Source of the DNA: a virus
Strand: one strand, 5' to 3'
Length of the DNA: 64,000 nt
Virus record (IMG/VR): IMGVR_UViG_3300027756_000004
Made by a program: the position numbers and the translations under genes. Of this stretch, positions 19,037 to 43,821 are shown in pieces; positions within the stretch are counted from its first letter, which is position 1, and the number at the start of each line of letters is the position of its first letter. The notes under the pieces are model-generated. The model worked only from the letters and a program-made list of their open reading frames with translations. It searched no databases and had not been told where the DNA came from.

Positions 19037-22000
19037 ATGGCTGAGTTTAAATTAGGTAGGATTAGGTTTATTTGGAAGGGAGCCTGGATCACTTCAGTAA
19101 CCTATTTCATCGATGACGTAATTAGATACGGTGGTCGTACCTATATTTGTGTGGTGGGACACACCAGCGGAGTATTCCAAACAAATTTAACTGCTGGCTA
19201 TTGGAACCTGATGAGTGATGGTCAGGAATGGAAAAACGATTGGTCATTAAACACCACATACAAACCCAATGACATTGTAAAATATGGCGGATATTTGTAC
19301 ATTGCCAACCAAGGACACACATCAGCAGCCACCCTTGCACTAGGACTGGAAGCAGATCAAGCCAAATGGGATTTATTTTCAGAAGGATTTGATTACAAAT
19401 CAGATTGGACAGTTCTTACTAGATACAAAGTAAACGACTTAGTCAAGTATGGAGCCTACATCTACACCTGTATCACTGCACACACATCTGCTGCTAGTGC
19501 TGCATTAGGTTTAGAAAATAACATTGCCAACTGGGAAGTGTTCTCCAAAGGATTCAATTGGTTGAATGCTTGGACCGCTCTTACTAGATATAAATTAGGA
19601 GATGTGGTAAGATATGGTGGACAACTGTACACTTGTAATCTTGGTCACACTTCAAATGTATCTGCCACTACATTGGGTGGTGGACTGGAAGCAGATCAAG
19701 CCAAATGGGATTATCTACACAAAGGTATAGAATACAAAACAGATTGGACTATCAACACCAGATACAAAATTAATGATGTGGTCAAGTGGGGACCAAGCCT
19801 TTGGATCTGTACCACTTTCCACGTGTCTAGCGGCACCACACTCACAGCAGATCAGGCCAACTGGGCTGTGTTTGTACCAGGATTAGAATTTGAAGATTCA
19901 TGGAGTTCAGCCACAAATTATCAAATAGGAGACTTTGTGACCTACGGAGGTTACGGATATGTGGCCAAGACCAACAGTATTAATAAAAATCCCAGCACTT
20001 TTGTAACTGTTGATTGGGATTTATTTGTCACAGGATTCCGTTTGATTGGAGATTACTCTGCTGGCACTGCATACAAAACTGGCGACGTAGCACGTTTGGG
20101 TGGCTTCACTTATATTTGTATTCTAGACAGCATTGGCAACAGACCACCCAATGTCACTTATTGGAGCAAACTCAATGAAGGAATCTATTGGAAAGGCAAC
20201 TGGGCCAATAGCACATTGTATGACAAAGGTGATGTGGTGCGAGGTATCATCAACGCCAACAACACATACATTTGTATATTAGGACATACTTCCAACAACG
20301 TGGGACCTGCCATAATTACTCAACCTGATTATGCACCAGGAGCAGGAGTGGACACAGGCACCTACTGGCAATTATTATCAGGAGGTGCAGAAAGCTCAGC
20401 ACTTACCACACAGGGAGATTTATTATTGTATGGCCCGTCAGGTCCAACAAGATTGCCAATTGGACTTTCAGGTCAAACATTATTAGTGAATTCTGCAGGC
20501 ACATTGCCTGAGTGGGGTTACTTTGGAAAAATTAACAACGTATGGTATGTGGCTCTTTCAGGTGTGGACGCACCAGCTCCAGACTATGGTGCCACATTGA
20601 ATCAACCTTGGAAAACCATTCAGTATTGTCTTAAAGAGATAGACAAAGGACCGTTGTATCCTAACGCAAAAAATTTATTATTGAGAAACAAAGCATTTGT
20701 GCAAAGAGAAACCGTGGCTTATATCAATGCCACATACACAACCACTTGTAGCAATACCACCACAAGCACTAATCTAATCACTTGTGCCAGCACTGCAAAT
20801 TTAAGAGTGGGCATGAGAGTTGAATTTACTGGCACCACATTTGGTGGCATCAACATTTCAACAGAATATTATATCATAACAAAAACTTCTACTAATATCT
20901 CAGTGAGTTTGACTGCGTCAGGCTCTGCAGTCGCACTTTCAACTGCAGCAGGAACAATGACAGTGAAATTAAAATATGATCAAACCAAATGTTTGAGAGA
21001 CATAGGTCAAATTATTGACGCTGTGATTTTTGATCTAGGTCATGGTGGCAACGAAAAAAGCAGATTGGCTGCAATTTCCTACTACACTGGCAGTGGATCT
21101 TATGTGTATGGACAAGAAGTAGAAACCAGTGCTGCAATCACATTTGCCAAAACAGTGATTGATGCTGCCATATCTAATGACAACGCTTATGTAGAATTAC
21201 AAGCGACTGTGCCTCAAGTGATTGACGCTACTAAAATAGAAGAACCAGAAGCATTTGGCATCATTACCACATTGATGAACATTGTGATTGATAGCATCAC
21301 AGCTGGTGACATTGATGATGTGCCAGCAGAAAGAATTGCCAACAACACCGTATTTGTAAAAACTGGAACATTTTTTGAAGTGCTGCCCTTATATGTGCGT
21401 GAAAGCACAGCTATTGTGGGAGATGAATTAAGAAGCACCAATATCAGACCTGCACCCAGTTATGTGGACGTACAAGACGTGCCATATTCATTGACAGGCA
21501 TTGATAGATTAAAAAATATAATTGATGACATCATTACCAACACAGCGATCACACCTACGCCTGCAGGTTATATTAGAGTTGTCTCAACTCCAGCATTAGA
21601 TGCACTTAGAACAGCAGGCACTTACACAGCAGTGGCTGTCACAGGTGGTGCAGGATCCAGCGCAACTTTTAACGCCACAGTAGCAGCTGGAGGAGCGATC
21701 ACATCATTCACTATTAATAATGCAGGATCAGGTTACGCCGCAGGCAACACCCTGACCATAGCCTCAGGTTTGTTGGGAGCTTCCAGTTTAGCTACCACAT
21801 TCACAGTGACCACCATAGGTGCAGGCACCGTGGCACAGGCAGGAGCACAAAATACCAACCTTCCAGCAGGATCCAACGCAGCAGCCACTTCAGCAGTGGC
21901 CATTGTGGATGACATTTATGATTATATTGGTTACAACGTATTGGATGACAGCACCACTTATTCTAATCCTGTGATGTCAGGTTCTAATTTACCCAACACT

Positions 22001-25000
22001 GCAATAGGTTACACAGATGCTGTGTTGAGACTGATTGAAAACAAAGAATACATAGCCACAGAAATAGTAGAATACAGTAAAAAAACCAATGCTTCCAGTG
22101 CATTCTACACTTATTTCACAGCAGCCAATGAAGCGTCTTGCAAAAGAGATATAAGAGAATATGTGGATGCTGTATGTCATGATTTAATTTACACCGGCAA
22201 TTGGAAATCATTGATAGCTGCCAAATATTACGAAACTGCTGTGTCAGGCAGTGTCACTTCCAACATGTTCTTAATGAGAAACGGCACAGGATTAAGAAAC
22301 TGCACCCTGCAAGGATTGGCAGGCACATTATCTGCGCCCAACGGCTATGGCACTCAAAGACCCACAGCAGGAGCTTATGTATCATTGGATGCAGGTTGGG
22401 GACCAGCACATGAAGATATGTGGATCACTAACAAATCACCCTATGTGCAAAACGTATCCACATTCGGCTCAGGTTGCGTGGGATTAAAAGTGGATGGTGC
22501 ATTACACAACGGTGGAAACGATTCCGTAGTGGCCAACGACTTTACACAAATTTTATCAGACGGTATTGGATTCTGGGTGACCAACTTGGGCAGATCAGAA
22601 TTAGTATCAGTGTTTTCATATTACAATCACATTGGCTATTTGGCTGAAAATGGCGGAAAAGTAAGAGCCACCAATGGTAACAATTCTTATGGTAAATTCG
22701 GATCAGTGTCTGAAGGTGGAGATGTCACTGAAACACCAATCACTTGTACTGTGGACAACAAGAGCACAGACGCTACCATAGGTAATACTTTCACAGATGG
22801 TAATAGAATATTAGCAATGGAATACACCAATGCTGGTACCAACTACACCACAGCAGCAGTGCATACAATATCTGGAGATGGATTTGGCATCACAGGCACC
22901 ACTGCTACCATACGCAATGGTGGTGTGTATGAAATAAGATTGAATGAAACTGTCACATCACCTGAAAGCAACTATGGTGGTGACGGATACAGTTCTTCTG
23001 CCAACGTGGCACAGAACGGCACAGACAAAACTGTAACAATTTCCAACACTGACACAGCATTGGCTGCTGAGTTAACAGGTTTAGCCATATGGTTGATTTC
23101 AGGATTAGGTGCAGGGCAATATGCATACATTGTGGGATTCAATGCAGGTTCAAAAGCTACCAAAGTGGCCAGACCTTCATTCCCCAGCATGACAGTCACA
23201 GCTGCCACTGCTTCCAATGATAGATTCACCACTGCCAGCACCAGCAACTTAGATTTGAACATGCCTTTGATGTTCAGTGGCACAGCATTTGGCGGAGTAA
23301 CCACCACAGCCACCAACCCAACCATTTATTATGTGAAAACTATTTCTTCAGCCACACAATTCACCATCAGCACCACACCAGGTGGCACTGCGTTTGATAT
23401 CACAGCAGATGCCGCAGGCACCATGTATGTACACAAGGCAGGATGGGATCATTTGGTGAACACCACTTGTACCAACACCACAGTAACCACAGATGTAATC
23501 ACTTGTGCATCCACTTCAGCATTGTACGTGGGCGCAGCAGTGCAGTTTGATGGACCAACATTTGGTGGCATCAGCACATACACTCAATACTATGTGAAAG
23601 CTGTTTCCTCTGCCACACAATTCACCATCAGTACCACCTTAGGTGGTGCAGCAGTCACACTTTCAACTGCTTCAGGCACCATGAGTGTGAGAGTAGTGGA
23701 AGCTACATTGGATGGCACTACCCAATATGAATATGTGCCGCGCATCATAGTGAGCGCTCCTGCATCAGGAGTCACGACAATTGCGAGAGCAGTGGTCACC
23801 ACTGAAAAAATATCATCTATAAGAATTATTGAGCCAGGATCAGGACACGTAACCACTCCCACAGTGACCATTGTGGATCCCAGCAACACTGTGGAAGCAC
23901 CAGTGCAAGTGTTCTATGGAGATGGCGCTTTGGGTCAACCAACATTTACCAACCGAGGAACAGCCTACCTCACAGCAATAACCACTGTGACAGAAACAGG
24001 AGTGGTACGCACTGTGAACGGCATCACCAACGCTAATCCAGGTGTGGTGACCACCAGTGCTGCTCATGGTTACGCAGATGGAACCAAAGTTATTTTTGCC
24101 AATGTGGCAGGTATATTCCAAATCAATAGTGGCACATGGTTTTACACTAAATCACTCACTGGAACCACATTCCAATTGTATGTGGATGAGGCTTTAACTG
24201 TGGGATTGAATACCACCAGCTTTGGCACGTACATAGCTTCAGCAGGCACAGTGACAGCATTTGGTGGATTTAGAAACAGTTTACAAAGCGGCAGTTTCAT
24301 TCAAGTGCAAGGATTAACACAAATTCCTCAAGCAGGTTCCAATGTGGAGTTTGCATCCATCGCAGGCGAATGGTACAAATTGGTTACTGTGCAAAATCTT
24401 TTAGGCACACAATATCCATTCACAGCATTGTTACAAGTGAGTCCACAAATAGGAGTAGGAGAAGCTCCACCACATGGAACTGTTATCACAATTAAAATTA
24501 GATATTCACAAATTAGATTGACTGGTCATGATTTCTTAGACATTGGCACTGGTGGTTTTGTTTCAACCAATTATCCTGGCATACCTTTACAAGCAGCTAA
24601 TGGTGACAACGAAACTGTGGAGAATGGTGGAGGCAGAGTATTTTTTACCAGCACAGATCAAGATGGTAATTTTAGAGTAGGTGATTTATTCTCCGTGGAA
24701 CAAAGCACAGGTATTGCCACATTGAATGCAGATGCATTCAACATTTCAGGATTACAAGAACTTCAGTTGGGTGAATTAGTATTGGGAGGCACCAGTGCTT
24801 CCATCAACGAATTCTCCACAGACGGTACAATGGCAGCTGACAGTGACCAAATCGTGCCCACTCAGAGAGCGATTAGAACATATATATCTAGTCAGATCGG
24901 TGGTGGAGCCAGCAGTTTGAATGTGAACCAGATTACTGCAGGTTTGATCACAATATTCAGCAATACCATTGAGACCACCACTGGAGTGACAATAAACTTT

Positions 25001-25072
25001 GATTCCCCTGTGAATTTCACAAAAGGGATAAAAGGAACACCCGTAGCATTGGGGTATTTCTTACAAGGATAA
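19037..25072 (+). CDS. Giant tail fibre/spike protein (paralog of 13625-19000) with two phycobiliprotein-like inserts
   Basis: Same repeats, beta-helix and C-terminal module as its paralog. Inserts carry KCLRDIG (Cys codon 20990) and SCKRDIR (Cys codon 22139). Preceded by TAAATA 19006-19011. Confidence 0.72.
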   Translation: MAEFKLGRIRFIWKGAWITSVTYFIDDVIRYGGRTYICVVGHTSGVFQTNLTAGYWNLMSDGQEWKNDWSLNTTYKPNDIVKYGGYLYIANQGHTSAATLALGLEADQAKWDLFSEGFDYKSDWTVLTRYKVNDLVKYGAYIYTCITAHTSAASAALGLENNIANWEVFSKGFNWLNAWTALTRYKLGDVVRYGGQLYTCNLGHTSNVSATTLGGGLEADQAKWDYLHKGIEYKTDWTINTRYKINDVVKWGPSLWICTTFHVSSGTTLTADQANWAVFVPGLEFEDSWSSATNYQIGDFVTYGGYGYVAKTNSINKNPSTFVTVDWDLFVTGFRLIGDYSAGTAYKTGDVARLGGFTYICILDSIGNRPPNVTYWSKLNEGIYWKGNWANSTLYDKGDVVRGIINANNTYICILGHTSNNVGPAIITQPDYAPGAGVDTGTYWQLLSGGAESSALTTQGDLLLYGPSGPTRLPIGLSGQTLLVNSAGTLPEWGYFGKINNVWYVALSGVDAPAPDYGATLNQPWKTIQYCLKEIDKGPLYPNAKNLLLRNKAFVQRETVAYINATYTTTCSNTTTSTNLITCASTANLRVGMRVEFTGTTFGGINISTEYYIITKTSTNISVSLTASGSAVALSTAAGTMTVKLKYDQTKCLRDIGQIIDAVIFDLGHGGNEKSRLAAISYYTGSGSYVYGQEVETSAAITFAKTVIDAAISNDNAYVELQATVPQVIDATKIEEPEAFGIITTLMNIVIDSITAGDIDDVPAERIANNTVFVKTGTFFEVLPLYVRESTAIVGDELRSTNIRPAPSYVDVQDVPYSLTGIDRLKNIIDDIITNTAITPTPAGYIRVVSTPALDALRTAGTYTAVAVTGGAGSSATFNATVAAGGAITSFTINNAGSGYAAGNTLTIASGLLGASSLATTFTVTTIGAGTVAQAGAQNTNLPAGSNAAATSAVAIVDDIYDYIGYNVLDDSTTYSNPVMSGSNLPNTAIGYTDAVLRLIENKEYIATEIVEYSKKTNASSAFYTYFTAANEASCKRDIREYVDAVCHDLIYTGNWKSLIAAKYYETAVSGSVTSNMFLMRNGTGLRNCTLQGLAGTLSAPNGYGTQRPTAGAYVSLDAGWGPAHEDMWITNKSPYVQNVSTFGSGCVGLKVDGALHNGGNDSVVANDFTQILSDGIGFWVTNLGRSELVSVFSYYNHIGYLAENGGKVRATNGNNSYGKFGSVSEGGDVTETPITCTVDNKSTDATIGNTFTDGNRILAMEYTNAGTNYTTAAVHTISGDGFGITGTTATIRNGGVYEIRLNETVTSPESNYGGDGYSSSANVAQNGTDKTVTISNTDTALAAELTGLAIWLISGLGAGQYAYIVGFNAGSKATKVARPSFPSMTVTAATASNDRFTTASTSNLDLNMPLMFSGTAFGGVTTTATNPTIYYVKTISSATQFTISTTPGGTAFDITADAAGTMYVHKAGWDHLVNTTCTNTTVTTDVITCASTSALYVGAAVQFDGPTFGGISTYTQYYVKAVSSATQFTISTTLGGAAVTLSTASGTMSVRVVEATLDGTTQYEYVPRIIVSAPASGVTTIARAVVTTEKISSIRIIEPGSGHVTTPTVTIVDPSNTVEAPVQVFYGDGALGQPTFTNRGTAYLTAITTVTETGVVRTVNGITNANPGVVTTSAAHGYADGTKVIFANVAGIFQINSGTWFYTKSLTGTTFQLYVDEALTVGLNTTSFGTYIASAGTVTAFGGFRNSLQSGSFIQVQGLTQIPQAGSNVEFASIAGEWYKLVTVQNLLGTQYPFTALLQVSPQIGVGEAPPHGTVITIKIRYSQIRLTGHDFLDIGTGGFVSTNYPGIPLQAANGDNETVENGGGRVFFTSTDQDGNFRVGDLFSVEQSTGIATLNADAFNISGLQELQLGELVLGGTSASINEFSTDGTMAADSDQIVPTQRAIRTYISSQIGGGASSLNVNQITAGLITIFSNTIETTTGVTINFDSPVNFTKGIKGTPVALGYFLQG
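19343..19373 (+). repeat. 31-bp exact intragenic repeat (second copy 19682-19712)
   Basis: GGACTGGAAGCAGATCAAGCCAAATGGGATT occurs twice, encoding GLEADQAKWD. Confidence 0.85.
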
Positions 25073-25100
25073 CTAGAGTACAACAAAAGGAGAACAGTAA

Positions 25101-25427
25101 ATGGCAACAGGAAGATTGGGAGCAGCGAACTTAGGAGCTGCTGCTTTGAACACAGTGTACCTTTGTCCAGCTGATACGTTTGCAGTGGTTGCTGTGAACT
25201 TCCTAAATCGAGGCAATCAGGCTCAGACCTTTAGATTGGCTGTGGCTACGACAGACACACCAAACGCAAACGGATCTGAATGGATTGAGTACGATGTGGA
25301 AGTGCTATCCAAAGGAGTGCTGGAAAGAACCGGCTTAGTTTTGGCAGCATCACAGAGATTAGTGGCATACGCATCAGGGGGCAACGCTAGTGTGGTGGTT
25401 TACGGCATTGAAACATCAACGCTGTAA
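25101..25427 (+). CDS. Small virion adaptor-like protein, paralog 3
   Basis: VYLCPA.T.AVV.VN.LNR...FRLA...IEYD....GVLERTGLVL.....LV.....SVVVYGIE pattern; SD AGGAG. Confidence 0.6.
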   Translation: MATGRLGAANLGAAALNTVYLCPADTFAVVAVNFLNRGNQAQTFRLAVATTDTPNANGSEWIEYDVEVLSKGVLERTGLVLAASQRLVAYASGGNASVVVYGIETSTL

Positions 25428-25473
25428 TATTACATACAATAGCATAAATACAAGCAAACAAAAGGACTAAAAC

Positions 25474-25806
25474 ATGGGAAGATACATATCAACAACCGGA
25501 ACCGCTGGCATAGTGATCAGAGAAGTTACGACCACTTATCAAGCAGTGGTAAATGATAGAATTTTAGCAAACAGCTCAGCTGGTGCTTTTACTATCACTT
25601 TGCCTCTGAATGCAAGTTTGTTGAACAATGACACCATTCAAATCATAGATGTTGGCAGTGCTGCAGGCACCAACAACATCACCGTGGCTAGAAATGGTTC
25701 ATTAATCAACGGTGCAGCTGATAATTTAACAATTGACTTGAATCAAGCAATTGTGACTTTGATCTACACAGGGGTTACTAACGGTTGGATTGTGGGCGCA
25801 GTATAA
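25474..25806 (+). CDS. Small fibre-associated protein resembling a T4 gp34-type domain
   Basis: Y.A...DRI..NSS.GAFTITLP......D.I.IID......NN.TV.RNG..ING....L.ID......L.Y.....GW pattern. Confidence 0.55.
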   Translation: MGRYISTTGTAGIVIREVTTTYQAVVNDRILANSSAGAFTITLPLNASLLNNDTIQIIDVGSAAGTNNITVARNGSLINGAADNLTIDLNQAIVTLIYTGVTNGWIVGAV

Positions 25807-25857
25807 TATAAAAATAAATTTTATACAGCATCACATACCAGAAAAGGATTTGAAAGA

Positions 25858-26841
25858 ATGGCAAGTTTAAAAACACTCACTGCAACTAAGAGATCTGACT
25901 TTCCACAGGTCACCGAAACCAATGTGGAAGCTGGACAAATCTTTCACTTTTCCATGGGAGCCAACTTTGAAGTTTTCAACAATGGTATCTGTTTCAAACC
26001 CTGTCAATCAGGCACAGCCATAATTGAATTGTGGGGAGCTGGAGGATCAGCTGCTCAAATGTGTTGTTGCGGATTTGGTCTGCCAGGCAATCCAGGTGCT
26101 TATGCACGCAAAACTGTAGTTTTATCATGCTGTGGATACATCTCTGGACAAGTAGGAAATTCATGTGGCAATTCAAGCGCACTGTGTTTTAGAGGATGTG
26201 GAGATGCCACAGGCGTAACTTATTATCCCATTGGCACAGGTGCAGGACAAGGTTGTGTGTGTGCTCAGGGTGGTAGAGGTGGAATTTCTTATTGCAGCAC
26301 AGGCACCAATGCCTATTGCTGTTTTTTATCAGGCGCATTTTATAGCAGTATAGGTTTAGATGGCAACTGCGGCATTGTGTGCAACAAATGCTGTTCAGGT
26401 GGATGGTGTGCTCAGTCCTACGGTGGAGATTTAAATTGTCCAGGTGGATTCAGTTGTGTGAGTTTCCTTGGAGCATCAGGCAGTTCATGTCCTTGTCAAT
26501 CAAATGTTCACGTGCAAGGTCCTGCAGGATATTTTTCCAAATGCGGAGTAGTGGTATCTTACAATTCAGATGACGGCAATGGTTTTGCCAACTGGTCAGG
26601 TCAAGGCAGAGGTCAGTATGCTCAAGCATTGGCAGCTGCCAGCAGATGGCCACAAATGGGAGCTCAAATGGCCACTTGTTGGGGATTTTCAGGCAATTGT
26701 GGTTGTTATGAAAATGAAGGATGTCAACATCTATTACCGCCAGGATTTCCTGGGGGAATACCACACCCATGCCCAGGCGTGAGAGATCACGCACAGCGAG
26801 GTGGTATGGGAGCAATCAGAATTAAATGGATAGCAGGATAA
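25858..26841 (+). CDS. Cys-rich, Gly-rich tail fibre tip/adhesin-like protein 1
   Basis: IELWGAGGS...GG.G.IRI glycine-rich domain framing; about 30 Cys in 327 aa, including MCCCG. Confidence 0.6.
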   Translation: MASLKTLTATKRSDFPQVTETNVEAGQIFHFSMGANFEVFNNGICFKPCQSGTAIIELWGAGGSAAQMCCCGFGLPGNPGAYARKTVVLSCCGYISGQVGNSCGNSSALCFRGCGDATGVTYYPIGTGAGQGCVCAQGGRGGISYCSTGTNAYCCFLSGAFYSSIGLDGNCGIVCNKCCSGGWCAQSYGGDLNCPGGFSCVSFLGASGSSCPCQSNVHVQGPAGYFSKCGVVVSYNSDDGNGFANWSGQGRGQYAQALAAASRWPQMGAQMATCWGFSGNCGCYENEGCQHLLPPGFPGGIPHPCPGVRDHAQRGGMGAIRIKWIAG

Positions 26842-26845
26842 TCAT

Positions 26846-27844
26846 ATGCCAACACTGAGATCATTGATAGAAACTAAATTAGCATTCCAGTTGCAAGGAT
26901 TGGAATCAAACGTAGAAGAAGGCAGAATTTGGGCTTATTCTCCCGGCACAGCAGTGGGCACTAACTTTCATTGCGGTGTGTGTTGGATATCACCAGGCAC
27001 AGGCACAGCTACCATAGAGATATGGGGAGCAGGTGGATCTGGAGCAAAAATGTGTTGCTGCGGATTTGGTCTGCCAGGCAATCCAGGTGCTTACTCCAGT
27101 AGAACTGTCAGTGTGACAGTGGGCTGCTGCATCAGAGGTCAAACAGGAATAAGCTGTGGTAACTCAGACGATTTATGCTACAGAGGCAGATCTGAAAGCA
27201 CGGGTATCTGCTGGCAAGGCAACGGCACCAACGGATGTATGTGTGCAGAAGGTGGTCAAGGTGGATACAGCTATTGTTCTACCACTCCATCAGCCTATTG
27301 CTGCTTTGGAGCCAACGGATTTTGCAACACAAAAACAGCAGGTGAAAACTGCGGAATTATTTGTAACTACAGAGGCGCGGGCTGTGCCATTCACCAAGCT
27401 CAATCATACGGCGGCACTTGCAACATGGCAGGTGGATTCAGCTGTGTGAGTTTCTTTGGATGTTTGCCCACATGTCCTTGTGCATTCTGGTATCACATGA
27501 GAACTCCACCCAAAATGTATGCAGACTGTGGAGCATGGGTCACATACACCAACGATGTGGACAATGGAGCCTATAACTGGAGCGGTGGATCATTGTATGG
27601 TTATATTCACACTTTAGGATTGGTTTCTAGAAATCCAACACATGGTGGAAACTATTCAGCCTGTTGGACTGGAAATAGATATTGCGGTTGCTACAACATG
27701 AACGGTTGCATAGCGTTTGTGCCTCCTGGTCATGGTGGACCACCACCACATCCATGTCCAGATGTGAGAGATCATGCCTACCGAGGTGGTCATGGTATAA
27801 TTAGAATTAAATACGTGGGAACAGGATATTTGGGGTTAAACTAA
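26846..27844 (+). CDS. Cys-rich, Gly-rich tail fibre tip/adhesin-like protein 2
   Basis: Paralog with about 30 Cys in 332 aa; shares a 35-bp exact tract (27059-27093 = 26068-26102). Confidence 0.6.
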   Translation: MPTLRSLIETKLAFQLQGLESNVEEGRIWAYSPGTAVGTNFHCGVCWISPGTGTATIEIWGAGGSGAKMCCCGFGLPGNPGAYSSRTVSVTVGCCIRGQTGISCGNSDDLCYRGRSESTGICWQGNGTNGCMCAEGGQGGYSYCSTTPSAYCCFGANGFCNTKTAGENCGIICNYRGAGCAIHQAQSYGGTCNMAGGFSCVSFFGCLPTCPCAFWYHMRTPPKMYADCGAWVTYTNDVDNGAYNWSGGSLYGYIHTLGLVSRNPTHGGNYSACWTGNRYCGCYNMNGCIAFVPPGHGGPPPHPCPDVRDHAYRGGHGIIRIKYVGTGYLGLN

Positions 27845-28806: not shown

Positions 28807-28851
28807 TGATATATGTTGATAAATACACTAAATAGTAACAAGGAATAAAAT

Positions 28852-29505
28852 ATGATAACAAAAAATTTTACAATACCTTTGGCAGATGAACCCTATGTGG
28901 ACACCACTGCACTCAATAACACATATGCAGCCACTTATAAAGGTCCAAAATATATAAAAGTTGCCATTGACAGCACAAGTAAAGTTGTTGAAAGAGTAGT
29001 ATCATCAGCTGACACCATGGCTGAACTTGATCAAATGTTCACACCTACAGAAGCCAATCATACCTATCATGTGATGGATGCATCAACGCACACTTTTGAA
29101 GCAGCATATCTCACTGGCATGTATGACACAGGTCCTGTAGAAAATTACACAGAAACTTTACCTACCAGAAATGCCGCGGGTGAATTTGAAACTTTTACTT
29201 ATGGTTGGGATGACAACACAGGCATGATTCAACAACAATATTTTATTTTAGATATGAAATATGAAAACGGTAATTTTGTAAGACCTAGATTTAGAGTACA
29301 TGCATTAACCAGAGCGAGTTTCTTAGCATCAATGCAAGTGCAAATTGCCTCTATCACCACAGCTTTAGAAAGCAATCAAGAATTGACAGATGAAGCAAGA
29401 GGCCAATTAGAGACCTATAAAACTTGGTTAGAAAATCTTCCAGTAAAGTATGCAAACGTAAAACATTGGAAAATTCCATTCGTTTTGCCAGTACCAACAT
29501 ACTAA
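28852..29505 (+). CDS. Tail fibre assembly chaperone-like protein
   Basis: The C-terminus LETYKTWLENLP..Y.....W.IPF resembles the ..YRQ.LRD.P....WP chaperone motif. It follows the fibre tip genes and has tandem TAAATA upstream. Confidence 0.45.
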   Translation: MITKNFTIPLADEPYVDTTALNNTYAATYKGPKYIKVAIDSTSKVVERVVSSADTMAELDQMFTPTEANHTYHVMDASTHTFEAAYLTGMYDTGPVENYTETLPTRNAAGEFETFTYGWDDNTGMIQQQYFILDMKYENGNFVRPRFRVHALTRASFLASMQVQIASITTALESNQELTDEARGQLETYKTWLENLPVKYANVKHWKIPFVLPVPTY

Positions 29506-29574
29506 ATCAAGAATAATTCATCCATACATATACGTTGATATATAATAACGTGTGTAAGCTCACACCATTTATAT

Positions 29575-30519
29575 ATGAATAGATCCAAAGCATTTTTCCT
29601 CAATGGTGGCATAGGTAGAATCCTATGTGCTATTCCTGCATTAGAAAAATATGCAGAAGAATCATCAGATAAAGATTTTTTGGTAATCTGTGAAGGTGCA
29701 GTGGACATACTAAAAGGCCATCCTTTGCTGGATAAAAAAACTTACGATATATTTCATAAAAATTTATTTCATTCCAAACTGCAGAGTAAAGATGTGGTGA
29801 GTTTAGAACCATACAGAGTATGGGAATACTATAATCAAAAATGTAATCTATCACAAGCCTTTGACATCTTGATCAACAACAAAGGAGTGCGATCTTTGCC
29901 CAAACCCACAGTGGTGCTCAGCAAAGAAGAAATTGCACAAGGACAAAAAGTAATAGATGAGATCAAAACTAAAATTAAAAAAGAAAAAACAATTGTTTTT
30001 CAACCATTTGGTAGAGGCGTAGAACACATTGATAAAACTATTATAGATAAAACAGGACGCAGTCTTGAATACAAAGATGTAAAAAAACTTATCGGGAAGT
30101 TGCAAAAAGAAGGTTTTGCAGTAATACTGATGTCTGAGTTTGGATTGGAACTTAAGAATCAAAACTACACAGATGAAGTTGCTATGCCTGAAGGGTTAAA
30201 TCTTAGACAGTGGACTTCAGTAATCAAACATGCAGATCATTTCTTTGGATGTGACAGTGTAGGACAACATTTAGCATATATTGTTGGCACTCCTAGCACA
30301 GTGGTGTTGGGTCCTACATATCCCATCAACACCAGTTATCCCGAATGTGAATATTTTAATATCATGGACATGGGAGAGGTAGACCGAGAATATGATCCTA
30401 TTAGAATTACTATGGATGAAAGAATCTCTCGTAAAAACGAGATCCTCATGTCCATGAATGAAGAAATAGAAGATTATGCAATCAATACTATCATGGGAAG
30501 AAACAAAGATGACAAGTAA
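29575..30519 (+). CDS. GT9-like (ADP-heptose transferase family) glycosyltransferase A
   Basis: N-terminal GGIGRILCAIPAL and C-terminal IKHADHFFGCDSVGQHLAYIVGTPSTVVLGPT match the GT9 DSG..H.A.A...P....GPT signature. Confidence 0.65.
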   Translation: MNRSKAFFLNGGIGRILCAIPALEKYAEESSDKDFLVICEGAVDILKGHPLLDKKTYDIFHKNLFHSKLQSKDVVSLEPYRVWEYYNQKCNLSQAFDILINNKGVRSLPKPTVVLSKEEIAQGQKVIDEIKTKIKKEKTIVFQPFGRGVEHIDKTIIDKTGRSLEYKDVKKLIGKLQKEGFAVILMSEFGLELKNQNYTDEVAMPEGLNLRQWTSVIKHADHFFGCDSVGQHLAYIVGTPSTVVLGPTYPINTSYPECEYFNIMDMGEVDREYDPIRITMDERISRKNEILMSMNEEIEDYAINTIMGRNKDDK

Positions 30520-32320
30520 AACATCAGGATACATTGCTGCCATAGCACGTGGTCACAATAGCGGAGTGTGTCTATTAAAAGATGGCAAGGTAGTTTTTTC
30601 TATTGAGGAAGAAAGATTAAGCAGAGCAAAATACGATGGAGGTCCTTTTGCATCCATGGTTGAAATATTGAAATATACTGATAAGATAGATTATCTTGTG
30701 GTCGCACACACTCAAAAAATTAAAGACACAGCAGGTCGTATTGATTTCACCGGAGATGACGTGTACACTGGATTAGCAAGAAAATTAGGGTTAATAAATC
30801 GTCAAGCAGATGTGATGAATCATCCCCAAGTGGTTGATCTAAGTCATGTGCATCACAAACTACATGCTGCTTGTGCTTTTTATAGATCAGGTTGGGACAG
30901 TGCAGTCAGCGTAATAGTAGATGGAGCTGGCACTTTCCTTGGCATAAACAATAGTTTGCAAGGTCCGATTACTGTGTGGGAAGTTGAATCTATTATAGAT
31001 TGTGCGTATCCAGCTAAATTTAAATCATTGTACAAACACTATGGTACTAGAGAACCAGTGCTAGGTTGCGTGCTGAAAAATTTTCCTTCAGAGATTACAG
31101 ATGAATCTGGTCAAACTCATGAAGCAGTGTTCAGCGATCGAGCTGGCATTGTGAAAGTGTATGAAGCAGTTACACAATATTGTGGATTTATGCCTATTGA
31201 GGCTGGAAAAACAATGGGATTGTTTCCTTATGGTAAACCCAATCATAAAATTCCTAAATTATTTGAAACTGATTCTTTAGTAGAACTATCAAATAGAAAT
31301 TTGATATTACCCACCTATCCTAACGCTGCTTTAGTGAACTCACAATTATTTGATTTTTTAGAGGATCCTACAGGAGTGCAGCAAGAAGATGTAACCAAGT
31401 TAGAAAACCGTAGAGACTTAGCCTATGCTTGTCAGTTAGAAACTCAAGCTCAAGTTTTAAAATTAATTCGCAAGGCAGTAGCAATGACTAATAATAAAAA
31501 AGTAGTGCTATCAGGAGGCTATGGATTGAATTGTGTAGCAAATTACTATTATTTAGAACATCTAAGAAAAGACGGAGTTGAATTGTATGTTGAACCCATA
31601 TCTAATGATGCTGGTACAGCAATGGGAGCAGCATTACTGTTTTATCATCAAATATTTGCAGACAAGACTCCTAAAGTTCATGATACATTGTATCTAGGTC
31701 CCGATAAAGAATATAGTATTACAGATATTGAAAGCACAATCAAAACTAATCCTAAAATTTTTATGAGTGAAGCCACACACAAAGATATTGTAAAGCTCTT
31801 AAGAGCTAAAAATATTGTAGCAATATTTCAAGGCAAATCTGAAAACGGTCCAAGAGCATTGGGTAACAGATCCATTTTGTTTGATCCAACATTCAAGGAT
31901 GGCAAAGATTTTGTTAATATTATAAAAAAGAGAGAATACTTTAGACCATTTGCTGGCACAGTGTTACAAGATGATGTGCATGATTGGTTTGATTTGCGTG
32001 GTATGAAAGATTCTCCATTTATGATGTATGCTGTAAATTGCCAACCAGGAGTGGCTGAAAAAATTCCTTCAATTATCCATGTGGATGGTACTTGTAGAAT
32101 ACAAACCGTCACAGAAAAACAGAATAAACATTACTATGATCTTATAAAACAATTTAAAGAAGAAACAGGTATACCTATATTGTTCAATACTTCATTTAAT
32201 TTAGGAGGAGAGCCTTTGGTAGAAAGTTTTGATGATGCGATTAGAACATTAGAAAATTCTAAAATTGAATATCTATATCTTCCTGAACACGGCAAGCTAA
32301 TTCACATAGCAAACAACTAA
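30509..32320 (+). CDS. O-carbamoyltransferase, NodU/CmcH/TobZ family
   Basis: Motifs EEERLSR.K, HHKLHAACAF, VDGAG, GKTMGL.PYG, SGGYGLNC.AN, NDAGTAMGAA, GPRALGNRSIL, KREYFRPFA, HVDGTCRIQTV and NTSFN..GEP. Probable start MTSKT at 30509. Confidence 0.93.
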   Translation: MTSKTSGYIAAIARGHNSGVCLLKDGKVVFSIEEERLSRAKYDGGPFASMVEILKYTDKIDYLVVAHTQKIKDTAGRIDFTGDDVYTGLARKLGLINRQADVMNHPQVVDLSHVHHKLHAACAFYRSGWDSAVSVIVDGAGTFLGINNSLQGPITVWEVESIIDCAYPAKFKSLYKHYGTREPVLGCVLKNFPSEITDESGQTHEAVFSDRAGIVKVYEAVTQYCGFMPIEAGKTMGLFPYGKPNHKIPKLFETDSLVELSNRNLILPTYPNAALVNSQLFDFLEDPTGVQQEDVTKLENRRDLAYACQLETQAQVLKLIRKAVAMTNNKKVVLSGGYGLNCVANYYYLEHLRKDGVELYVEPISNDAGTAMGAALLFYHQIFADKTPKVHDTLYLGPDKEYSITDIESTIKTNPKIFMSEATHKDIVKLLRAKNIVAIFQGKSENGPRALGNRSILFDPTFKDGKDFVNIIKKREYFRPFAGTVLQDDVHDWFDLRGMKDSPFMMYAVNCQPGVAEKIPSIIHVDGTCRIQTVTEKQNKHYYDLIKQFKEETGIPILFNTSFNLGGEPLVESFDDAIRTLENSKIEYLYLPEHGKLIHIANN

Positions 32321-32321
32321 T

Positions 32322-33272
32322 ATGAACAAAGCATTTTTTATAAATGGTGGAGCTGGAAGAACTCTATGTTCAGTGTCAGCATTAGAGAATTATGCCATAG
32401 ATAACCCCAATGACGATTTTATTATTGTGTGTGAAGGCGGCACAGATTTTTACAAAGGGCATCCTAAACTGCATTTCAGATCCTATGATGTATGGCATAA
32501 AAATTTATTCAATGAATATCTAAAAGATAGACAATTAATTACACCTGAACCTTACAGAATTTGGGAATATTACAATCAAAAATGTAGTATAGCTCAAGCA
32601 TATGATATAGAAATTAATAACAAAGGCATAAGAAAGTTAGAAATTCCTAAAATATTTTTGTCTAAAGAAGAATTAATCATGGCTAGACAGATGATTAATG
32701 AAGTGAAAGAAAAAACTAAAAAAGAAAAAGTAATTGTGTTCCAACCTTTTGGACGTGTATCTAAAAAAGATAACGAGGACTTTGTAGATGTTAGTGGTAG
32801 AAGTTTTGAGATAGAAAATACCATGAGTTTAATAAGACAATTGGGCAAACAGTATGGCATTATATTGATGTCTGAATACGCAATTGATTTTGCCAAATAT
32901 CAAATTAATTTTCCTATCGCCGCTCCTCAACAAGTGCATGTAAGGGTATGGAGTGCAGTGATCAAAATGTGTGATCATTTTTTAGGTTGTGACAGCTTGG
33001 GTCAACATATAGCAAATGCATTTGACAAGACTGCCACAGTAGTATTTGGATCAACTTTTCCAGAAAACGTATCATACCCTGCCAACAACAAATTTGATAT
33101 CATCGACATGAATAAAGACAATAGAATTTATAGTCCTATACGTATTACCATGGATGAATACGCAGATCGAGCCAATGAAGATGCTATGAAGATGGATAAA
33201 GAAGTAGAAAACAGAATAGTACAATCTGTTCAAAGCATGATCAAACATGGTCAAAAGAAGATTAAAAAATAA
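32322..33272 (+). CDS. GT9-like glycosyltransferase B (paralog of 29575-30519)
   Basis: GGAGRTLC; EPYRIWEYYNQKC; CDHFLGCDSLGQHIA...TVVFGSTFP. Confidence 0.65.
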   Translation: MNKAFFINGGAGRTLCSVSALENYAIDNPNDDFIIVCEGGTDFYKGHPKLHFRSYDVWHKNLFNEYLKDRQLITPEPYRIWEYYNQKCSIAQAYDIEINNKGIRKLEIPKIFLSKEELIMARQMINEVKEKTKKEKVIVFQPFGRVSKKDNEDFVDVSGRSFEIENTMSLIRQLGKQYGIILMSEYAIDFAKYQINFPIAAPQQVHVRVWSAVIKMCDHFLGCDSLGQHIANAFDKTATVVFGSTFPENVSYPANNKFDIIDMNKDNRIYSPIRITMDEYADRANEDAMKMDKEVENRIVQSVQSMIKHGQKKIKK

Positions 33273-33296
33273 TACAATTTACAGGTAAATACACAC

Positions 33297-33713: not shown

Positions 33714-33757
33714 AATACCAGCTGGCCTTAGATAAATACACTAAAAATTAGACATTT

Positions 33758-34465
33758 ATGCCAGTAGTCAATAATCCATTAAAGTCGTTGTATGGCTTTC
33801 AAAGCCCTTCATTCAGTGTGAATGCTGCTGGTAATCTTGTGGCTGTTGATGTCACTGTGAACAACATCACAGCCAACGATATTACGGCCGATGATATCAC
33901 AATCGATCAAGCAAGCACCACAACATTGTTAGTGGGCGCTGCTACCAATTTACTGGGTACTCTTGCAGTGGCAGGAGTATCGACTTTTACAAACACCACT
34001 GCTGCGCAAAGTTTAAACATTGCTGCTGTAAAGATAGCAGGAGGAGTAGCCATTCAAAATAATTTGTTGGTCAACGCTAATAGCACATTCAACAATGACT
34101 TGACCATAGGTGAAGATTTAACAGTGCAAAACAATATTCAGGTCAATGATTCATTGATCACTGATCGCATCACTACCATTAACGATGGCAGCACATTGAC
34201 AGATTTATTGATCCAACCTGTGAGAAACGTTATTTTTAAAACTGCTGGTAATAACACAGAATTAGGCAGAATAGATGCCACAGGATCTACTGTGCCGGTG
34301 AAAAATACCAGTATCAACAACACCAGTATAGGACTCACAGTGGCCAGCACTGCTGCATTCGTAAGCGGCACCGTGGTCAACACTCCTACAGCAGCCAATA
34401 ATATCACTAGAAAAGACTATGTGGATCGTACAGCCGTGGCTTTCTCCGTGGCTTTAGGGGGATAG
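33758..34465 (+). CDS. Fibre-like structural protein
   Basis: GGVAI..NL.V fibre repeats, INNT.IG....S.A.F, and TRKDYVD..AVAFSVALGG C-terminus. Confidence 0.6.
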   Translation: MPVVNNPLKSLYGFQSPSFSVNAAGNLVAVDVTVNNITANDITADDITIDQASTTTLLVGAATNLLGTLAVAGVSTFTNTTAAQSLNIAAVKIAGGVAIQNNLLVNANSTFNNDLTIGEDLTVQNNIQVNDSLITDRITTINDGSTLTDLLIQPVRNVIFKTAGNNTELGRIDATGSTVPVKNTSINNTSIGLTVASTAAFVSGTVVNTPTAANNITRKDYVDRTAVAFSVALGG

Positions 34466-34499
34466 GTAAATACAATGCGCAAACTCAACTTAGTGGAAA

Positions 34500-37400
34500 A
34501 TGGCTAAAAAACAGTTAAAAAATTTTATATTTGAACCAGGTATCGGCAAAGATGATGGGTTATATCCCAATGCCGCTGCATTAATTTTAGCCAACAAATC
34601 ATTTTTACAACAACAGGTTGTAGCGTTTATCAATTATAATATTGCCAACAACATAGCACCCTATGTGGGTTATACCTATGCTTCACAAAAATGTATCAGA
34701 GACGTGGGATATTTTATTGACGCAGTGGTGCATGATATAAGATATGGTGGCAATGTAAAATCACGTCAGGTAGCAGATTATTTTTGGATAGACGGAGAAC
34801 CTCAGATCCGAGGTGATGTGTCTCCTGAGACCACTGGGCAGGCCTATCTACGCAATATCATCAATCAATATATTCTCACTAAGATAGCTGTGTCTCCTAG
34901 TTATGGCAACACAACACCACAAATATTCCCAGCAGGCATTAGCACAGAAAGTGATGGACCAACTGCCAACACTGCATTGTGGAACATTTTCAGCACAGTG
35001 ATCACCAATGGTCCCAGTGCAATACCAGCCAAAGTTCCTGGAGTATCTTCCATTAGACTGGCAGGACAAATTGATGTATCATCCATACTGTTGATTACTG
35101 ATGTGGATACAGGTAATATTCTTTACAGCTTTGCTGATCCTCTCAACACTGTGAGAGTCACTTACAAACAAGGACGCAGCAGCGGTGACGGCAATTTGTT
35201 AAGTGATTTGGATTTTCCTACTTGGTGGCAGGTCAGTGATTCTATCACCACCATAGATTTGAGTGCAGACACCAGCACACTCACAGCTTCAGCTAATATA
35301 CAATTTTTTGTGGAAGAAGCCAGCCAACAAATCAGACCTTGGGAATTTGGCACAGATGCTATAGAACGTATGCGTGTGGCATCACCACAGGCCATGTTAG
35401 ATGCTGACTTTGAATATGGACTGCAGCCAACCAAATGGCAAGCACTGGGACTTTTGAGAATGTATCCTTCCACCTATGAGATACCTGGCAGTGATTTAAC
35501 TGTACTCAGTTGTGTTACTGATGCATCTGTAAACACTGGATTTTTTGGAAGTTCGCTGATCACAGTGACAACCTCAGGTGTACATGGATTTCCTGTAGGG
35601 CAACCTATTTCAGTAAAAGGATTGAACAACACCGTGAACGGATTTGCCAGAGCAGAAGGATCTTTTTTAGTTTACAGTACACCCAGTTCTGTGAGTTTCT
35701 CATATTACGCCAGTGCCAAAGTTGGAACCACTAATGAAGAAAGTTTATTAACTTCTTTCATACAAATACGTCAAGCACAATTTTTCACAGGTGCTTCCAT
35801 AGGTCAGCCCAGCTTTTCAGTGTTCACCAACGGCACAGCACTGGCCATAGTCACAGCGCTGGCAGCCACAGCAGGCGCCACTTCATTTGTTTACACAGGC
35901 TCAGCTCCTACAGTGGGTTCTCCAGTCACAGGACCATCCACAATACCTGTGGGTACCAGCGTGTCAGGCACAGTGGGCGCGGCTTCGGTCACAACCAATG
36001 TTTTATTGAACACTTTAACCACTGACACTCAAATAAGTTTGACTAACTTGTCAGGCATACAAACAGGCATGGCATTGGATGTGGGTGGTACTGCTTCCAC
36101 TATCAACACCATAGCGGGCAGTCAATTATCTTTGAGCAATCAATTGAACGTGGCCTACAAAGGCAGAAATCACACCAACACTGCTGTGTCAGGTACACTG
36201 GTGGCTCCAGCGGGAGAATATGCAAGGTTTGATGTGTCTCGATCCGCTGGCACATACACATTGACATTGTCTGCTGCTGCATCACCCAACGCAATCAATT
36301 ATCAAAAAGGTGATAGATTAAAAATATTAGGCACCAACTTAGGCGGTGCATCTCCTGCCAATGACGTCAACATTTTAGTCACTGCCACAGGCACAGGCAA
36401 TGACATCGATACATTCACATATTCAGGCACTTCAGTGCTGGGTGGTGCTACTTACAACAATGTAAATCAAACTTCTACTACTGGAACACCCGGAGGAACA
36501 GGATTCCAATTGAACGTGACCAGAACAGGCGGCACGGGCACATATTCAATCAGCAGCAGCGTGGCTGGACTAAACTACAGCGCAAGCGAACAATTAACAT
36601 TTTCAGGTGCCAATTTTGGTGGTGCATCTCCTGCCAATAACATTGTTATCATAGTCAACAGCACCACATCTGACGGTGGAGTATTGACATACACTGTCAG
36701 CGGCTCACCTGTGGGCGCATCAGGCAACGCAACTTACAGTTCAGTTTCTGCAGACAATGTTGCACACCTAGGCAGTGGAGCTGAGTTCAATATTACTAGA
36801 AGCAGTGGTGTGTACACTGCTGCAATCAATAATGGTGGCACAGGATATGAAGAAGGCAATCAGATCACAGTATTAGGCACCAATCTCAATGGTGCAATTG
36901 CTAACAACGCCACAGTGATAATCACTGGCGTCGCAGCTGGAGTCATAAATGCGGTCACTGTGTCAGGAACAGGCTACGGAGGTGATTCAATCACTGTTTA
37001 TCCTACGATGTCTATCAGTGAACCCATCACAGGAAACATTCCTTTAGGTACTGCACTGAACGTGGGAGCTATTGCCACTTTCCAAGTAGATTTTCAAGCA
37101 CCACATGGATTAGTGCCAGGAACCACTATATTGAGTCAGGTCACCTCACAACCAGCGCCAGAATTAGCATCAACAGCAAGAACTTTAACAGGTTCAGGAA
37201 CTTGGGCAGTGGTTGGCTTTGGTGGTATATTTTCAGCAGTACGCAGTGGAGCCACTGCAACTCAACGTTCAACCAATGGACAACTTTGGGCGGCGGGTGG
37301 AGTAATGCCGTCAGCAGCCAATTGGAGTTCAGTAGCAGCAGGTAAGATTGGGGCCACAACATATTTTGTGGCAGTGTCCAATGGAAGCACCGCTGCTGCT

Positions 37401-43808: not shown

Positions 43809-43821
43809 GTAAATAATTATG

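Follow-up and report, generated by a model that had tools for sequence, protein, structure and literature searches.

Globin-fold domains with a putative bilin site, probably related to phycobiliproteins, in giant fibre proteins of aquatic myoviruses

Phycobiliproteins and BBAGs (bilin biosynthesis-associated globins) have the CXRD motif as their recognised site for bilin (Rockwell et al., 2023; PMC10151467). BBAGs and the photoglobins/photocobilins are non-antenna bilin-binding globins from outside cyanobacteria; the BBAGs are small cellular proteins encoded beside heme oxygenase (HO) and pre-PcyA genes, and the CXRD-bearing BBAG-1 and BBAG-3 attach bilin without a lyase (PMC10151467). Among phages, the roles of pcyA/pebS, of cpeT, and of HO/PcyA in phages of heterotrophs have been stated to be unsettled (PMC3037559, PMC11480375), and 'light-sensitive tail fibres' have been invoked for light-dependent cyanophage adsorption (PMC6628666). 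Here we describe an uncultured jumbo phage from fresh water in which two giant proteins of tail-fibre type contain three CxRD helical modules; we found no published description of a CxRD globin domain from viruses.

The window analysed, a stretch of 64,000 nt (IMG/VR virus record IMGVR_UViG_3300027756_000004), comes from a ~350-kb jumbo clade. A six-frame scan of the window with the family HMM returned only the modules listed below, whose motif cysteines are Cys652 (codon 20990) and Cys1035 (codon 22139) of the 2011-aa protein and Cys65 (codon 34692) of the 2146-aa protein. The preliminary description had placed three helical CxRD domains at these codons, and all of the peptides it quoted were exactly in place; the paralogous protein, which it had said lacks the inserts, likewise gave no family-HMM match. 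The features, with the globin modules as predicted, are:

2..412, + strand: sporadically occurring auxiliary gene hemB (porphobilinogen synthase), 3' part (PF00490, E 8e-33)
13625..19000, + strand: paralogous fibre protein, 1791 aa, without globin modules, the internal negative control (PHROG 9851, E 1.3e-182; zero HMM matches)
19037..25072, + strand: giant tail-fibre-type protein, 2011 aa (PF02839, E 2.8e-35; PHROG 9851 'tail fiber protein', E 3.7e-192)
20642..20791, + strand: split CxRD globin module of the 2011-aa fibre protein, first half with helices A/B (HMM positions 5-45, 19.4 bits; phmmer aa 539-567)
20792..20863, + strand: central part of the beta module that interrupts the split globin module in its B-E loop (gap between the two HMM segments)
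20864..21214, + strand: split module, second half, which contains Cys652-x-Arg-Asp and GGN (HMM positions 37-122, 68.8 bits)
21992..22357, + strand: second CxRD globin module of the 2011-aa protein, with Cys1035 and TGN replacing GGN (HMM positions 3-88, 71.5 bits)
34500..40940, + strand: giant virion structural protein, 2146 aa, with one globin module at its head (PHROG 5838 'virion structural protein', E 1.3e-230)
34545..34916, + strand: N-terminal CxRD globin module (aa ~16-139) of the 2146-aa virion protein (HMM 160.7 bits)

The 2011-aa protein begins with CBM_5_12 repeats, continues with its two globin modules, the second of which is followed by a beta-rich region, and ends in fibre domains. 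Its first module is interrupted, a ~75-aa beta module lying between the leading helix (aa ~539-567) and the CxRD helix (aa ~645-697); this B-E loop insert spans about aa 568-644 and so overlaps the edges of both flanking HMM matches. Each CxRD motif had been described as preceded by a helix; in this first copy that is true only across the insert. A similar beta module (TC-x-NTT...TFGG) was read directly from a later part of the same protein. The module of the 2146-aa protein has Cys65, Arg67, Asp68, Asp79 and GGN at 83-85; the full-length protein had zero Pfam family matches, and its orthologues, at 60-93% identity, occur in many metagenomes. Four fibre/structural families (PHROG 9851, 5342, 4527 and 5838) were matched and the neighbouring genes encode gp9/10-like, gp13, gp15, sheath, tube and terminase proteins, a virion-module setting of T4-superfamily type. 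Judged by this location and by family likeness, the modules sit in fibre/baseplate proteins of a phage of the T4-superfamily type.

The domain family was found in viruses only and comprises 1538 clusters at 50% identity, with up to 36 tandem copies per protein at a spacing of ~115-160 aa. To the same family belong domains of T4-GC 734 'short tail fiber protein' and of other giant structural proteins of T4-like cyanophages (S-PM2, Syn1, Syn9, P-HM2 and others); each genome has 2-10 copies, borne by ORFs of 3300-7300 aa that belong to the baseplate/fibre gene region. Neither a globin nor a phycobiliprotein domain is named in the annotations of these cyanophage proteins, and a search of the ESM Atlas matched unnamed clusters only. 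Whereas the domain-bearing T4-like cyanophages have genomes of ~170-250 kb, the window's clade is of ~350-kb jumbo size, and its capsid and sheath proteins are closest to those of PA5oct, Atu_ph07 and Phosso-type phages. Among 1770 distinct copies with a mean identity of ~27%, Cys was conserved in 95.6%, Arg in 95.8% and Asp in 98.4%; the triad seen in every copy of the window is thus almost invariant family-wide. No other position of the domain has Cys as its common residue, which leaves the conserved Cys nothing to pair with in a disulfide within the domain. The most invariant residue is Asp79 (99.7%), for which phycobiliproteins have no counterpart; Gly-Gly-Asn 83-85 and Tyr95 are further invariants of the family, and no position of the proximal-His type stands out among the conserved columns. 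These are, in sum, ~115-residue globin-fold domains of a large virus-specific family, occurring singly or in tandem in giant baseplate/tail-fibre proteins of aquatic myoviruses.

Several comparisons linked the modules to phycobiliproteins, by a resemblance greater than expected by chance. A phmmer search of PDB with a single sequence ranked phycocyanin alpha first (E 0.2). With the family profile, phycobiliproteins made up 58 of the 59 PDB matches listed (best E 1.7e-4), the module Cys falling on Cys84 in an alignment to phycocyanin alpha residues 35-103, and a broader profile of 136 sequences gave phycocyanin alpha in 33 of 35 matches (best E 0.0018). Profile-profile comparison by hhalign with a CpcA alignment returned probabilities of 92.5% (E 4.9e-7) and 93.7% (E 1.8e-7). 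Across the 55-69 columns that the sequence alignments cover, Cys-x-Arg-Asp on helix E (the Cys84 site) aligned column for column with phycobiliproteins. The Pfam family PF00502 (Phycobilisome) matched none of 24 family members, even at E up to 10, and a six-frame search of five phage records with it gave zero matches. The 21-residue phycocyanin alpha motif given in the preliminary description agrees with PDB sequences except at one residue.

AlphaFold models were built template-free from alignments of phage sequences only. For the module of the 2146-aa protein, two models had pLDDT values of 73.9 and 85.5, and the best ~50 Foldseek rows were all biliproteins (E-values 0.2-1). The best VIA match was far-red allophycocyanin 8or7_A (Z 10.8, 109 aa, 3.5 A; model residues 1-119 on chain residues 25-142), followed by allophycocyanin (Z 10.1), photocobilin globin domains (9.9) and ApcE (9.8-9.5), with sensor globins and RsbR also among the matches (8.4-8.2); a VIA Z of ~10 is within reach of helical folds through common architecture alone. 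The structural alignments covered 106-112 residues. The predicted fold is therefore globin-like and closest to biliproteins, with helices A to G present in the model and helix H not covered. The N-terminal X-Y hairpin is absent, as the alignments start at phycobiliprotein residue ~23-40 and the model has no helix before helix A.

By sequence, C-phycocyanin alpha is thus the closest phycobiliprotein, and by fold allophycocyanin and the bilin domain of ApcE are. The modules have in common with phycobiliproteins the globin-like helices A-G, the K-C-x-R-D-[IV]-G-Y motif on helix E at Cys84, Arg86 and Asp87, and Gly-Gly at the E-F' turn. However, they measure about 115 aa rather than 160-175, lack the X-Y hairpin and helix H, fall below the Pfam threshold and have invariants of their own (Asp79, Asn85, Tyr95), and they are embedded singly or in tandem in virion proteins of 2000-7000 aa, whereas phycobiliproteins are free alpha and beta subunits. 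The modules have the CXRD motif that is described for BBAG-1 and BBAG-3; in contrast to the cellular BBAGs, they are viral, part of structural proteins and, in the one phage of the clade with both enzymes (G059, below), encoded about 150 kb from the HO and bilin reductase (FDBR) genes. Taken together, the family profile, hhalign, AlphaFold and conservation results argue, as had been proposed, for discrete domains that are very probably true remote relatives of phycobiliproteins with a phycobiliprotein/BBAG globin fold, and in which the putative CxRD bilin site is intact. The family very probably descends from, or shares ancestry with, bilin-binding globins (phycobiliproteins, BBAGs).

The gene hemB had been suggested to feed the tetrapyrrole supply of the modules. 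The gene itself was confirmed, the ORF being the C-terminal part of delta-aminolevulinate dehydratase, but the suggested role was not: hemB is no part of the module system, because it stands alone directly after the gp23 capsid gene (as seen in contig L063), is sporadic, with four related IMG/VR contigs as its only occurrences, and is missing from the five large relatives (G001-G005) in which the domain is present. Searches of the window's lineage found no HO in 35 fragments (G001-G005 and 30 further IMG/VR fragments, all incomplete records), no FDBR in the five incomplete fragments G001-G005, of which G001 and G002 jointly cover, around the capsid gene, about 300 of ~350 kb, and no CpeT lyase in the fragments searched for it. 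A 328-kb phage of the same clade (G059; 92% complete, capsid protein 78% identical to that of the window's lineage) has an overlapping HO-FDBR gene pair, about 150 kb from a CxRD fibre gene whose 3849-aa product contains 18 domain copies. The proposal that the modules are the missing bilin acceptor in phages of non-cyanobacterial hosts thus fits G059 but fails for Pelagibacter phage Mosig, which has HO, PcyX and ferrochelatase and lacks the domain. The gene psbA was absent from six records of the clade, G059 included. The closest cultured relatives of the window's phage infect heterotrophic Proteobacteria, and five cultured jumbo relatives infecting heterotrophs were all without the domain. 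A motif scan of 185,579 species genomes returned 25 stretches only, not one of them from an isolate; all lay on contigs of aquatic MAGs from mixed taxa and, as they look like mis-binned phage DNA, they give no host.

A tblastn search of 50,697 phage records gave 66 matches, all to cyanophages or a marine virus, and 13 of 16 complete cyanomyoviruses had the domain, the exceptions being S-SM2, P-SSM2 and S-SSM7. The preliminary description had called for a check of co-occurrence with bilin genes, and none with HO or FDBR was seen among these 16 genomes: both are present in the domain-negative P-SSM2 and S-SSM7, and eight genomes have the domain with both genes absent. The T-type lyase gene cpeT, reported from 12 of 16 cyanomyoviruses (Sullivan, 2010), was found by our own search in 11 of 13 domain-positive and none of three domain-negative genomes (11-12 of 13 overall), S-ShM2 having the domain without cpeT; in S-PM2 and Syn1 the distance from cpeT to the giant CxRD fibre gene downstream is 0.7-1.4 kb. 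However, a portal-protein tree places the three domain-negative phages together as one clade (SH-aLRT 100), and because this leaves a single independent contrast we rejected the correlation as statistical support. T-type lyases are known to act on sites of the Cys153/155 type rather than on Cys84. Adsorption of S-PM2, P-HM1 and P-HM2, which carry the domain, needs light independently of host photosynthesis, whereas P-SSM2 and P-SSP7, which lack it, adsorb in the dark. Among the 16 cyanomyoviruses the domain tracks cpeT, within that single contrast, and perhaps light-dependent adsorption; the adsorption pattern comprises five phages and effectively one clade contrast among myoviruses.

We put the attachment of a bilin to the modules, and hence a pigmented fibre, at a little under even chances. 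In the most likely mechanism, the Cys would form a thioether to a linear tetrapyrrole during assembly in the infected cell, with Arg and Asp holding the propionates and pyrrole nitrogens. Biliverdin or a reduced bilin could serve as the pigment; it would come from the host or, in some phages, from a phage HO/FDBR cassette, and its attachment could be autocatalytic, as in BBAG-1 and BBAG-3, or in cyanophages aided by a phage CpeT-type lyase. We know of no reports of coloured cyanophage preparations. The use of such a pigment, whether light sensing that gates adsorption or photoprotection, is speculation.

A captured globin need not have kept its chromophore. A phycobiliprotein/BBAG-type globin taken up by an aquatic phage may now be a chromophore-free helical spacer or joint in fibres, with Cys, Arg, Asp, Asp79 and GGN retained for packing, helix capping or subunit contacts. 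We regard this as a real, if doubtful, possibility: arrays of up to 36 copies act like structural beads, Asp79, GGN and Tyr95 are non-phycobiliprotein features, the X-Y hairpin and helix H are missing, no dependence of the domain on phage bilin genes was seen, and it is retained where its B-E loop has accepted a beta module. Packing alone, for which Ala, Ser or Val would be equally good, is nevertheless a poor reason for 95.6% of 1770 copies, at ~27% identity, to retain a lone Cys in a protein of extracellular destination, and the bilin triad is conserved as a whole.

Nor would a ligand have to be a bilin. Globin folds bind varied ligands (sensor globins and RsbR are among the structural matches), the modules lie in receptor-binding-type proteins beside CBM_5_12 and other binding domains, and a cation could be bound by the additional invariant acidic residues. 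The partner might then be heme or a different tetrapyrrole, a metal, or a molecule on the host surface, with a role in receptor recognition or fibre cross-linking. This we consider improbable, as it is bilin-binding globins in particular that match best in both sequence and structure, with the alignment falling at the bilin site, and a standout proximal-His-type position is missing. An unrelated four- or five-helix bundle that bears K-C-x-R-D-[IV]-G-Y by chance or convergence would account for the short sequence alignments, the modest PDB E-values (1.7e-4 to 1.8e-3), the Foldseek values and the failure of PF00502. Yet profile-sequence, profile-profile and template-free fold comparisons are three independent lines that lead to the same family, with the motif at the equivalent helix position and structural alignment over 106-112 residues, and such a coincidence is very hard to credit.

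Should bilins indeed be attached to the modules, this would be the first case of pigmentation among the structural proteins of virions, and the bilin-binding globins would gain a new and very large branch. Phage-encoded bilin synthesis and the orphan lyase CpeT, whose roles have both been called unsettled (PMC3037559, PMC11480375), would then have a concrete acceptor, and the 'light-sensitive tail fibres' (PMC6628666) a molecular candidate. It is rather unlikely that the fibres of many aquatic myoviruses, both cyanomyoviruses and the uncultured ~350-kb jumbo clade, are genuine biliproteins and the virion a photoreceptor gating adsorption; if true, this would explain phage ho1/pebS/pcyA/pcyX, the lone cpeT and the light-requiring adsorption of S-PM2, P-HM1 and P-HM2. 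Even without a pigment, the phycobiliprotein fold has very probably been recruited as a building block of phage fibres, which bears on the origin of phycobiliproteins (PMC10151467) and gives an annotation to a domain so far unannotated in cyanophage genomes.

The window is from a myovirus of the T4 superfamily and corresponds to its virion module, with genes for gp9/10-like, gp13, gp15, sheath, tube, large terminase, gp32 and UvsX/RecA-like proteins. A family HMM, built from homologous copies of the ~115-aa helical module that bears the Cys-x-Arg-Asp (CxRD) motif, was run on the window in all six frames and gave the following matches:

34545-34916, CxRD module (six-frame HMM match; Cys65 of the 2146-aa protein, ORF 34500-40940)
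21992-22357, CxRD module (six-frame HMM match; Cys1035 of the 2011-aa fibre protein, ORF 19037-25072)
20642-20791 and 20864-21214, split CxRD module (six-frame HMM match; Cys652 of the 2011-aa fibre protein)

No further CxRD module was found in the window by this search. The preliminary description had placed three CxRD peptides here, and each was recovered at exactly the codon it had given; its claim that the paralog encoded at 13625-19000 lacks modules was likewise upheld, with zero HMM matches in six frames. In the first copy of the 2011-aa protein, an inserted beta module of ~75 aa sets the leading helix apart from the CxRD helix.

Several other features of these proteins and their surroundings were seen. 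Runs of CBM_5_12 carbohydrate-binding repeats open both giant paralogs (window 19037-20500 and 13625-15700; PF02839, E 2.8e-35 and 2.6e-26), and an E1_FCCH-like domain lies at aa 1667-1740 of the 2011-aa protein. In the 2146-aa protein, five or six BNR/Asp-box-like S-x-[DN]-G-G-x-[TS]-W repeats (window ~37150-37800, aa ~885-1100) suggest, as read from sequence, a beta-propeller mid-way along the chain; PF02012 is precomputed for one orthologue of this protein (P0041). The giant fibre gene is bracketed (window 29575-33272 and 41300-43865) by genes for a GT9-like heptosyltransferase (a weak PF01075 match), a NodU/CmcH-type carbamoyltransferase, a bifunctional HldE-like kinase/adenylyltransferase, an epimerase and a NUDIX protein. 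This set is kept in two relatives (L058 and L059) and is a candidate virion glycosylation cassette.

When a single module was compared with the PDB, phycocyanin alpha chains ranked first, at E 0.2. With a 24-sequence profile the best E was 1.7e-4, phycobiliproteins made up 58 of 59 among the matches listed, and the alignment ran along phycocyanin alpha residues 35-103, with the module Cys falling on Cys84. A broader 136-sequence profile matched phycocyanin alpha in 33 of 35 cases (best E 0.0018), and hhalign against a 24-sequence CpcA alignment returned probabilities of 92.5% (E 4.9e-7) and 93.7% (E 1.8e-7). The Pfam Phycobilisome model was matched by no single family member.

Two template-free AlphaFold models, for which the input was confined to phage sequences (pLDDT 73.9 and 85.5), share one order of elements: helix, helix, long helix, short helix, hairpin, helix. 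Foldseek, proposed earlier for the module of ORF 34500-40940, gave biliproteins only among its top ~50 matches (E 0.2-1.1, probabilities up to 0.99, TM up to 0.6). The best match in VIA, a structure search independent of Foldseek, was far-red allophycocyanin (Z 10.8, 109 aa, 3.5 A), followed by allophycocyanin (10.1), a photocobilin globin (9.9), three ApcE bilin domains (9.8-9.5) and phycoerythrin (9.4), with sensor globins and RsbR ranked lower. Since the structural alignment covers phycobiliprotein residues ~25-145, the viral domain shares helices A-G with phycobiliproteins but lacks their X-Y hairpin and helix H. Profiles, hhalign and fold together bear out the earlier claim of a likeness to the phycocyanin alpha bilin site, both as homology and as an intact Cys-Arg-Asp site. 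The CxRD modules very probably belong to the bilin-binding globin superfamily as distant members; they are not phycobiliproteins in the strict sense, and represent a virus-specific globin module of the type found in phycobiliproteins and bilin biosynthesis-associated globins (BBAGs).

The family is large. Residues 1-170 of the 2146-aa protein matched 222 giant proteins in a word-indexed search, many of them with multiple copies of the module, and when 1.84 billion representatives were searched exhaustively with a profile, 1538 clusters were found at E<=0.001, with proteins of up to 6382 aa and up to 36 tandem copies per protein. Across 1770 distinct copies, the triad at the bilin position is nearly invariant (Cys 95.6%, Arg 95.8%, Asp 98.4%), a second Asp, 11 residues past the triad Asp, is kept in 99.7%, and Gly-Gly-Asn and one Tyr are likewise strongly conserved; mean column identity in the 136-sequence family alignment is 27%. 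Along the long helix, Cys, Asp, Ile, Ala and Asp are conserved at i, i+3, i+7, i+10 and i+14, a spacing that puts them on a single face. Giant fibre and baseplate proteins of aquatic myoviruses use the module as a building unit.

A tblastn search with one module matched 66 of 50,697 phage records, namely cyanophages and one uncultured marine virus. By profile search, 13 of 16 complete cyanomyoviruses are domain-positive (2-9 copies each, in ORFs of 3340-7312 aa) and P-SSM2, S-SM2 and S-SSM7 have zero copies; the podovirus P-SSP7 also has none. In the S-PM2 RefSeq record (NC_006820 168556-173383), 16 tRNA features with the shared locus tag S-PM2t009 lie inside the 11.3-kb giant fibre ORF; because this region translates as an open frame with globin modules, they look like an annotation artefact. 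The source of the window is not a cyanomyovirus. Its sheath protein is nearest to those of PA5oct/Atu_ph07-type jumbo phages, the capsid protein of its lineage (from a related contig, L063) shares 64-67% identity with its counterparts in Phosso, PA5oct and XaC1-type phages of Proteobacteria, and CheckV estimates imply a genome size of ~350 kb for the clade. Five cultured jumbo relatives of this type lack the domain, and a search of six records from the window clade found no psbA. When one genome from each of 185,579 prokaryote species was scanned with a DNA motif, 25 stretches matched in total; all came from contigs of aquatic MAGs that differ in taxonomy, with no isolate among them, so the family looks strictly viral and aquatic. 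The contigs are apparently of phage origin, assigned to MAGs in binning; among these MAGs are Verrucomicrobiales, Rhodobacteraceae, Flavobacteriales, Planctomycetaceae, Polynucleobacter, a Euryarchaeota MAG and a Synechococcus MAG (194-kb contig).

The window opens with the 3' part of hemB (2-412; PF00490, E 8e-33), which the preliminary description had feeding tetrapyrrole to the fibres. In related contigs the gene order is gp20, gp21, scaffold, gp23 and hemB, with no other tetrapyrrole genes nearby; in L063 (8117-8971) hemB (porphobilinogen synthase, ~284 aa) lies directly 3' of the gp23 major capsid gene, within the head-gene block. The gene was restricted to four related IMG/VR contigs and was not in five large domain-bearing relatives (G001-G005), of which G001 covers the syntenic position. 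These results speak against the proposed supply, and hemB was rejected as a bilin partner of the modules. The preliminary interpretation is partly supported: homology and intact site hold, and the hemB link fails.

The suggested co-occurrence of the domain with genes for heme oxygenase (HO) and bilin reductases (FDBR) was seen in one phage and not in others. Of 50 records drawn from randomly sampled IMG/VR contigs that bear the domain, G059, a phage of the window clade, was the sole near-complete record (328 kb, 92%) and the sole HO carrier; its FDBR gene overlaps HO, 18 domain copies lie in one 3849-aa protein, and psbA is absent. Capsid identity to the window lineage is 78% for G059, versus 82-83% for G001 and G002. 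In G059 the cassette and the capsid gene are ~146 kb apart, too far for short fragments to include both; HO was not found in 30 further IMG/VR fragments of the window lineage. Neither HO nor FDBR was found in G001-G005; as the cassette is missing from the ~300 kb surrounding the capsid gene that G001 and G002 jointly cover, it is sporadic in the clade. A counter-example to the pairing is the complete genome of the SAR11 (Pelagibacter) phage Mosig, which has no CxRD globin domain, and in which ferrochelatase, HO and PcyX adjoin neck genes (39650-43977: ferrochelatase, four 2OG-Fe(II) oxygenases, HO, PcyX-like reductase). In the 16 cyanomyoviruses the domain tracks neither HO (4 genomes) nor FDBR (7 genomes), and P-SSM2 and S-SSM7 have both genes and no domain; because cyanobacterial hosts make their own bilins, this pattern is weak evidence either way.

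CpeT (PF06206), present in 12 of 16 cyanomyoviruses (Sullivan 2010), occurred in 11 of 13 domain-positive and 0 of 3 domain-negative cyanomyovirus genomes. In S-PM2 (163952-177267) and Syn1 (19938-33236) the order is cpeT, 2OG-Fe(II) oxygenase, giant CxRD fibre ('short tail fiber protein', T4-GC 734) and gp12, with this orphan bilin lyase gene 0.7-1.4 kb upstream of the fibre gene. In a portal-protein tree, however, the three domain-negative phages group as a single clade (SH-aLRT 100), and S-PM2 is sister to Syn1; correlation and synteny therefore each amount to a single evolutionary event, and are leads, not statistics. The domain is also present in S-PM2, P-HM1 and P-HM2, whose adsorption needs light yet is independent of host photosynthesis, and absent from P-SSM2 and P-SSP7, which adsorb in the dark, a lead with the same single-contrast phylogenetic limit.

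CXRD is the bilin-attachment motif of phycobiliproteins, and BBAG-1 and BBAG-3, which carry it, bind bilin without lyases (Rockwell et al., 2023, PMC10151467). What pcyA and pebS do in phages has been termed a mystery, and the role of a lone cpeT in phages unresolved (PMC3037559), and for freshwater phages with HO/PcyA and presumed alphaproteobacterial hosts a BBAG-type partner was raised merely as a possibility (PMC11480375). A full-text literature search found no paper describing a phycobiliprotein-like domain in a virion protein.

The conserved thiol, for which there is no partner Cys, is most simply explained, if tentatively, by attachment of a linear tetrapyrrole, which would be thioether-linked to the module Cys inside the infected cell, either autocatalytically, as in BBAG-1 and BBAG-3, or with the help of a lyase. 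The main rival, a somewhat doubtful but real possibility, is that the module was exapted as a structural repeat, with residues conserved for the sake of folding or subunit contacts; the family's own invariants (Asp79, Gly-Gly-Asn 83-85, Tyr95) and the independence of the domain from phage bilin genes support it. Both are likelier than the two other readings, of which a different ligand at the site is improbable and convergence highly so. On the reading of bilin attachment, the giant proteins are candidate pigmented phage fibres.
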